Source of the DNA: Octopus vulgaris
Lineage: Eukaryota
DNA: 64,000 bases
Assembly (NCBI GenBank): GCA_951406725.2
Contig: OX597840.1
Coordinates: forward strand, 13,330,001 to 13,394,000
Reading direction: 5' to 3'
Shown: one piece after another, positions 15,553-59,043 of the stretch
How the letters are laid out: each line of letters opens with the position of its first letter
How positions within the stretch are numbered: the first letter of the stretch is position 1
Translations under genes and position numbers: made by a program
Notes under the pieces: model-generated
What the model was told of the DNA's origin: nothing
Databases searched by the model: none
Seen by the model: the letters and a program-made list of their open reading frames with translations, nothing else

Positions 15553-15702
15553 ATGGGTCTTCTTATAGAAGGTACTTTAATGACATGGGAAGAAATCAAA
15601 CCTTATATTTTACACATCAAGAATCAAGCAAGAATGCAGTTCGTTCATGTGTATAAGAAATACAAGGACCAAAAAAATTATCCCCTTTATTGGGGTGATG
15701 AA
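15553..15702 (+). CDS. GCLC: GCLC-like coding exon 1 (MGLLIEG...LYWGDE)
   Basis: ATG at 15553; the N-terminus resembles MGLLSQG...KWGDE; donor GTAAGT at 15703. Confidence 0.95.

Positions 15703-59043: not shown

Follow-up and report, generated by a model that had tools for sequence, protein, structure and literature searches.

The window analysed here, a stretch of 64,000 nucleotides of Octopus vulgaris DNA, carries on its forward strand a gene derived from GCLC, which we call gene A. A splice-aware model guided by the protein P0008 divides it into 16 exons between 15553 and 59043, with an ATG at 15553 and a stop codon ending at 59043; all 15 introns have GT-AG borders and the 606 codons contain no internal stop, in agreement with the preliminary description of this DNA, which had reported an uninterrupted 606-residue frame across 16 exons. 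It had also listed a set of catalytic motifs (GDE.E, PEY....EG, LQVTFQ, DCRW, RYD, R.K.P and EFR), each of which is found in gene A, and the joint alteration of three others, whose coordinates a six-frame motif search recovered: HPRF has become DPFF in exon 5 (31320-31331), MGFGMG.CCLQ has become a rebuilt motif of 11 residues (letters not shown) in exon 7 (43223-43255), and QSTNWQ has become ISMNTP in exon 11 (48124-48141). The features are as follows, with yeast residue numbers, here and throughout, taken from a phmmer alignment to the Gsh1 structure 3IG5.

15553..59043, + strand: gene A, a GCLC-derived paralog, 16 exons, 606 residues (splice-aware model; identity to P0001 and P0135; Pfam GCS at 442.8 bits in P0135)
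15553..15702, + strand: exon 1, with start codon and Glu50 at 15700-15702 (splice-aware model)
19439..19545, + strand: exon 2, with Glu52 at 19442-19444 (splice-aware model)
21947..22054, + strand: exon 3, with Glu91 and Glu98 (yeast Glu96 and Glu103) and a purine-rich acceptor site (absent from P0001, present in P0135)
24081..24146, + strand: exon 4 (splice-aware model)
31217..31333, + strand: exon 5, with DPFF, where Asp179 is yeast His194 and Phe181 yeast Arg196 (model, alignment)
32036..32231, + strand: decayed duplicate, lying in the intron, of exon 5's 3' half together with the intron sequence after it (DPFF readable; donor GT lost, stop follows)
35711..35769, + strand: exon 6, encoding the helix that follows DPFF and hypervariable from paralog to paralog (model, codon analysis)
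43113..43330, + strand: exon 7, with Met240 (yeast Met258) and Gln250 kept, Ala244 for yeast Met262 and Ser248 for yeast Cys266 (model, contigs)
44866..44982, + strand: exon 8, with Arg295 (yeast Arg313) kept (model, contigs)
45832..45970, + strand: exon 9, with Tyr328 (yeast Tyr362) kept (model, contigs)
47233..47345, + strand: exon 10 (model, contigs)
48118..48204, + strand: exon 11, with ISMNTP and Thr405 for yeast Trp445 (model, contigs); Arg409, Lys411, Glu422 and Arg424 (yeast 449, 451, 470 and 472) kept (alignment)
50890..50994, + strand: exon 12 (model, contigs)
54340..54421, + strand: exon 13 (model, contigs)
54965..55032, + strand: exon 14 (model, contigs)
57762..57879, + strand: exon 15, with Arg537 for a near-invariant Cys (model, contigs)
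58877..59043, + strand: exon 16, the coding part with the stop; contigs extend to at least 59499 (model, contigs)

Gene A is 99.8% identical to P0001, a 'GCLC-like' protein with the source name Octopus vulgaris whose model omits the N-terminus and exon 3, and 98.8% identical to P0135, a 606-residue protein named as belonging to the sister species O. sinensis, from which it differs at seven of 606 residues, none of them within the three altered motifs. Splicing of exons 7-16 is supported by public contigs from all four of four runs, which represent four studies and are guessed to be RNA. Joints across GT..AG introns are seen for all six introns from exon 10 to exon 16 in X1, for five in X2 and for four each in X6 and X11, and parts of exons 7-11 follow one another in sequence along a single X11 contig without a differing letter. 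Over the motifs of exons 7 and 11, contigs of X1, X2 and X11 show at most one differing letter, and the only such letter in the cover of exon 11 is a synonymous G>A at 48159. This coverage of two of the motifs, together with the match to P0135, rules out that the altered motifs are products of misassembly or of a frameshift; contig support spans exons 7-16 and stops short of exons 1-6, including the DPFF exon and exon 3.

Several features of the locus deserve separate mention. Exon 3 (21935-22054 with its acceptor) is 108 nt long, could be skipped in frame and holds two metal-binding glutamates. Its acceptor is purine-rich in all seven of the octopus paralogs described below, and at the 5' end the exon falls 12 nt short of its canonical counterpart, which would fit a shift of the acceptor into former exon sequence. 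Among public models, P0001, P0003, P0005 and P0147 lack exon 3 and P0006, P0008, P0011, P0135, P0026, P0134 and P0027 include it; skipping it would yield a catalytically dead isoform, and its absence may equally be a prediction miss. The introns also contain remnants of LINE-type reverse transcriptases (28538-29827, + strand, in intron 4, and 17986-18852, - strand, in intron 1) and, within intron 4, a trinucleotide microsatellite of 2.7 kb and low GC (about 25800-28550).

Gene A does not stand alone: it belongs to a set of seven paralogs whose pockets all differ. Searched against the octopus genome (G000), the Pfam GCS profile found 49 matches to exons, and exon 1 found eight; together these resolve to a single canonical gene on contig C4 and seven full-length divergent genes on contig C27. 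The canonical GCLC is intact, encodes 649 residues in 16 exons and is canonical at every pocket site; the separate canonical copy for which the preliminary description had advised a search is thereby found, and the notion that gene A is the only GCLC of the genome is ruled out. Paralogs A (in the window), B, C and D lie at 13.35-13.59 Mb of C27, E at 23.94 Mb, and F and G at 36.19-36.29 Mb. All seven are 605-607 residues long and free of stop codons, and they are 65-81% identical to one another and 50-54% identical to the canonical copy. Gene A itself is 54% identical to the canonical protein, matches its gene in the layout of 16 exons and is 43 residues shorter; the shared layout indicates that the family arose by DNA duplication, followed by tandem copying. 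Some exons have been homogenised between paralogs (exon 15 of C and D, 100% identical; exon 11 of B and C, 98%; exon 10 of B and D, 98%), and exon 11 of gene A reaches a DNA identity of merely 64-69% with those of its six sisters.

Irregularities occur elsewhere in the family. Two 3'-only copies of paralog F (C9:8416-16762 and C28:20820461-20821130), 95-97% identical at the DNA level with introns included, are partial duplicates or haplotype pieces. At the end of exon 1 of paralog D (C27:13592569-13592574) the metal ligand Glu50 is Lys in this assembly and Glu in its counterpart in P0003/P0004, records named O. bimaculoides; this is either an inactivating allele or a sequence error. Paralog G (C27:36258060-36291385) carries exon 15 twice and has lost the equivalents of Arg313, Arg361, Tyr362 and Trp445, identically in three species, and alignment indicates that here even the glutamate site is rebuilt. 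The public mRNA-type record P0026 joins the body of paralog E to an F-like last exon, through either an assembly chimera or gene conversion.

The family as a whole has been conserved by selection. Pairwise dN/dS among the seven paralogs ranges from 0.19 to 0.39 at a dS of 0.33-0.71 (21 pairs); for gene A, dS is about 0.5-0.7 against the sister paralogs and reaches about 1.9 against the canonical copy. GY94 fits over 601 codons gave a single ratio of 0.28; the branch leading to gene A has 0.33, indistinguishable from the value of the other branches (p 0.35), and a ratio of 1 on that branch is rejected (p 3e-10). Site models over the same 601 codons favour a class of positively selected sites (M1a/M2a, p 0.017; M8a/M8, p 0.006), headed by codons 240 (yeast Met258) and 185, with 179, 183, 186, 40, 93 and 533 also above 0.9; codons 179-186 and 240-241 are hypervariable among the paralogs. 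When the converted exons are left out (345 codons) the two tests give p 0.055 and 0.054 and sites 185 and 240 remain. The evidence for diversifying selection at the acceptor loops is weak to moderate.

The catalytic core of gene A is complete. In yeast the Mg ions are contacted by Glu50, Glu52, Glu96, Glu103 and Glu470, glutamate by Tyr362, Glu52 and Arg472, ADP by Lys451, and cysteine by Glu96 at its amino nitrogen and by Trp445 through a hydrogen bond to its oxygen, as listed in Table 3 of PMC5613772. Every one of these contacts is kept in gene A, including all five Mg ligands, except Trp445, which is Thr405; Tyr362, Arg472 and Lys451 are kept along with Arg313, Arg449, Gln268 and Gln272. 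These last four we take to be glutamate and nucleotide residues of Gsh1. In a list of 13 metal, ATP and glutamate residues gene A shows no change, B-F and the Argonauta protein two each and G four; of the seven paralogs, six retain Arg472 and all five metal glutamates, as does Argonauta. Arg468 in yeast numbering is Lys in gene A. The fold is likewise that of GCLC. The ortholog P0135 matches Pfam PF03074 (GCS) with 442.8 bits (E 1.5e-132) and no other family, and its AlphaFold2 model, built from a 100-row alignment (pLDDT 92, pTM 0.93), superimposes on yeast Gsh1 (3IG5) with a Foldseek TM of 0.89 (E 1.5e-52), while glutamine-synthetase folds give E values above 0.01 (8x6z, E 0.014) at 7-9% identity.

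The acceptor site is another matter. Positions 194 (His), 196 (Arg), 261 (Gly), 439 (Asn), 445 (Trp) and 446 (Gln) are invariant in 106 of 106 non-octopod GCLC matches, and Met262, Cys266 and Gln441 are kept in 105 of the 106, a sample of best-scoring matches that is biased to conserved proteins. Gene A has replaced Arg196, Trp445, His194, Met262, Cys266 and Gln441, and has kept the equivalents of Met258, Phe197 and Tyr97 together with Asn404 and Ser402 (yeast 444 and 442); the alignment indicates that the altered positions reflect neither chance nor ordinary variation. We take Arg196 to be the presumed anchor of the cysteine carboxylate, in line with work on yeast and trypanosomes, and Met262 to be a cysteine-site residue of Gsh1. 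In plant GCL a conserved Arg220 in the cysteine pocket binds the glycine carboxylate of a glutathione analogue, according to PMC6463388, and this residue is presumably equivalent to yeast Arg196. Across paralogs A-G position 196 is occupied by F, L, L, V, F, Y and Y, and in Argonauta by L; among the 135 of 149 representatives that cover these sites it is Arg in 127, Lys in six, His in two and hydrophobic in none. A hydrophobic residue here fits an acceptor that has no carboxylate. Position 445 is Trp in 131 of the same 135 and Tyr in four, and 37 of the 135 deviate at 196, 262 or 445. Among the seven paralogs only A and G have lost Trp445, and since G has also lost Arg313, Arg361 and Tyr362, gene A alone combines a complete core with the loss of both Arg196 and Trp445. 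The earlier claim that the Arg of HPRF and the Trp of QSTNWQ are lost is borne out (Phe181 for Arg196, Thr405 for Trp445), and the earlier placing of the Trp of TNW at that site accords with the bond between Trp445 and the cysteine oxygen in Table 3 of PMC5613772.

The further claim that the changes cluster in the acceptor pocket holds in part. Changes in gene A affect 11 of 16 residues in a list of acceptor-loop positions, none of which is changed in the canonical copy, against 43 of 164 (26%) other near-invariant positions, an enrichment (Fisher p 0.0009) that is optimistic, the list having been drawn up partly from general knowledge of the enzyme and after the alignment was seen, rather than from ligand coordinates. 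The changes are not confined to the pocket: 53 of 191 near-invariant positions are altered in gene A and six in the canonical copy. Further changes in gene A include Thr100His and Gly102Arg beside Glu98, and Arg420Lys, and those outside the acceptor loops may lower activity. The near-invariant Cys at position 537 of gene A is lost in every paralog; this residue is presumably linked to the modifier subunit GCLM and to regulation.

In the searches made here the octopod clade has a narrow distribution. Its members among the matches of word-index searches carry only the names of Octopus (three species) and Argonauta hians; for squid, cuttlefish and nautilus no GCLC protein, canonical or divergent, occurs among the named matches. 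When 1.84 billion representatives were searched with a profile, a single clade representative emerged at 1054 bits, the next match scoring 658 bits, and neither kind of search yielded a gastropod member. In an IQ-TREE analysis under LG+C20 (27 rows) the clade has support of 100/100 and is sister to the octopus canonical GCLC, with 100/99, relative to 17 other animal rows. A FastTree LG analysis of 59 rows set the clade among long branches, apart from the canonical copy, with a support of 0.06 at that fork, and we prefer the mixture-model tree, which uses 27 of these 59 rows. Forcing the clade together with four gastropod GCLC proteins costs 28.5 lnL units and gives a p-AU of 0.06, which is no formal rejection. 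Descent of the octopod clade from the octopus's own GCLC is thus favoured, not proven. As the best tree places the clade with that gene, gene A is probably not an ortholog of the Aplysia gamma-glutamylhistamine enzyme, the alternative having the p-AU of 0.06 just given, and its link to that enzyme is one of analogy. No prior description of an octopod GCLC family was found, judging by title and abstract beginning, among papers searched in their open main text.

GCL works in two steps, in which gamma-glutamyl phosphate is formed and the acceptor's amino group then attacks it, and the mammalian enzyme accepts other amino acids, and probably taurine, when cysteine is short, according to PMC10741565. 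Gamma-glutamylserotonin is described from Aplysia, Conus and annelids (PMC8155685). The residues for the first step and for the attacking amino group are kept in gene A and the apparent grip on the carboxylate is dropped, and for this reason we put an amine acceptor first: gene A would be an ATP-dependent gamma-glutamyl ligase that likely proceeds through glutamyl phosphate, as GCLC does, and probably uses a carboxylate-free amine rather than cysteine, a proposal to which we give a little less than an even chance. The first step would be unchanged from GCLC, with gamma-glutamyl phosphate formed from glutamate and Mg-ATP; in the second a primary amine R-NH2 would attack, and its backbone would need no carboxylate anchor. 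Glu91 (yeast Glu96), which is kept, would hold the acceptor amino group, while smaller residues at 262, 266 and 445 and an aromatic one at 196 would give the pocket more room and an apolar lining. A second cationic group on the acceptor, as histamine, a diamine or agmatine would bring, might find its partner in the Asp that now stands at 194, although this is a guess. The seven paralogs may form a panel with different acceptors that would serve to inactivate, store or excrete amines, with the canonical gene supplying glutathione. Octopus salivary glands are rich in amines; no report of gamma-glutamyl amines in octopus was found in the main text of the papers searched. The wider proposal, that octopods possess a seven-member panel of gamma-glutamyl-amine synthetases derived from GCLC and that gene A is an animal gene for biogenic-amine gamma-glutamylation, is more doubtful, and we advance it tentatively. 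In either case gene A should not, on the evidence of its residues, be filed under EC 6.3.2.2, as it fails the cysteine-site features and would share with GCLC its first step.

The same kept core would also serve a ligase whose acceptor is a small peptide or a different amino acid, for example a hydrophobic or aromatic one, taurine or hypotaurine, or a thiohistidine, with the carboxylate held by a different residue. The known side activity of GCL is towards amino acids (PMC10741565), Asn404 and Ser402 are kept, and unusual products of sulfur amino acids, adenochrome among them, occur in octopus (PMC7545470); however, the retooled copies of other invertebrates, considered below, alter the side-chain pocket yet retain Arg or Lys at 196 and Trp or Tyr at 445, while gene A lacks both Arg196 and Trp445 and has gained an Asp nearby, and we consider this reading unlikely, if the strongest of the rivals. 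Gene A might instead still make gamma-Glu-Cys, with low affinity and free of glutathione feedback and of the modifier subunit, and so provide more thiol in some tissue. The kept equivalents of Met258, Phe197 and Tyr97 would suit such an enzyme, and regulation could be looser now that Cys266 and the Cys at 537, given their presumed roles, are gone. If plant Arg220, which binds a glutathione analogue at its glycine end (PMC6463388), is a guide, the loss of Arg196 could likewise serve escape from feedback. Yet seven different pockets and hypervariable pocket codons are unexpected under selection for dosage, Trp445, a direct cysteine contact, is gone, and the canonical gene is intact, which makes continued cysteine ligation quite improbable.

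A largely non-catalytic role is only slightly more credible than that. Here gene A would be a ligand binder, a scaffold or a crystallin-like recruit, for which the S-crystallins of cephalopods are a precedent, or an uncoupled glutamate-dependent ATPase that yields 5-oxoproline. The 53 altered near-invariant residues, the in-frame skippable exon 3, the losses of Arg313, Arg361 and Tyr362 in G and the Lys50 of D in this assembly are what such a role might leave behind, but all 13 catalytic residues persist in gene A despite its synonymous divergence from sisters and canonical gene alike, and the retention of the metal glutamates and Arg472 across nearly all of the family also counts against it. 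That gene A is a decaying duplicate without function we find scarcely credible. The long stem branch might suggest it, as might the family's partial copies and its local conversion events; the preliminary description had proposed to judge decay from dN/dS and expression, and against it stand the branch ratio of 0.33 with 1 rejected, the spliced contigs in four studies, the open frame with its 15 canonical introns and the 98.8% identical ortholog. With no disabling lesions either, gene A lacks the marks of a pseudogene.

GCLC is usually viewed as single-purpose and mostly single-copy, and the octopus copies are annotated merely as 'GCLC-like'. Reading them as markers of glutathione synthesis would mislead expression studies. 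Gamma-glutamylation of biogenic amines has long been known from molluscan tissue and is not known to be tied to a sequence; if amine ligation by the octopus copies proves true, it would give a first sequence handle on gamma-glutamylation in the handling of neurotransmitters or dietary amines in an invertebrate, and octopus metabolites so far unexplored would be expected. With seven natural variants of the pocket and a canonical control, a single genome offers a test bed for the acceptor specificity of GCL. Similar retooling in mussels, sea cucumbers, chelicerates and rotifers suggests that animals may harbour a hidden class of gamma-glutamyl ligases under wrong annotations.

Among known systems, gene A resembles GCLC/Gsh1 (EC 6.3.2.2, PF03074; PDB 3IG5, 3IG8, 3LVV and 3LVW) in its GCS domain, fold and metal, ATP and glutamate residues, and differs from it in the six replaced residues of the acceptor site and in being one of seven paralogs where GCLC is usually a single gene. 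The canonical enzyme makes gamma-Glu-Cys, is subject to inhibition by glutathione and BSO, and associates with GCLM. Stein and Weinreich, as cited in PMC4472778, reportedly described a gamma-glutamylhistamine synthetase of Aplysia (EC 6.3.2.18) in 1983. That enzyme carries out an ATP-dependent gamma-glutamylation of a biogenic amine, and to our knowledge no sequence has been assigned to it. The chemistry proposed for gene A would match that of the Aplysia enzyme and the formation of gamma-glutamylserotonin in molluscs and annelids (PMC8155685); the Aplysia GCLC that was found (P0109) is, unlike gene A, canonical at every pocket site. The bacterial GS-like proteins GlnA2, GlnA3 and GlnA4 are described as gamma-glutamyl-amine synthetases that detoxify or use amines (PMC8998196, PMC5403932, PMC6529630), and gene A would resemble them as the same superfamily chemistry turned to amines. 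In contrast to these and to the PuuA type, which are of glutamine-synthetase origin, the octopod proteins derive from GCLC, with GCS the sole Pfam match of P0135. Also comparable are uncharacterised retooled GCLC-like copies in Mytilus (P0152), Apostichopus (P0162), Tachypleus (P0156), mites (P0159 and P0161) and Rotaria (P0175), which are six of ten proteins looked up, the others being three unnamed proteins and one spider protein not flagged at these sites. They form separate 50% clusters and are 39-43% identical to gene A. Like gene A they have kept the core and rebuilt the GMG loop; unlike gene A they retain Arg or Lys at 196 and Trp at 445, so that the octopods differ from them exactly at the presumed carboxylate anchor.
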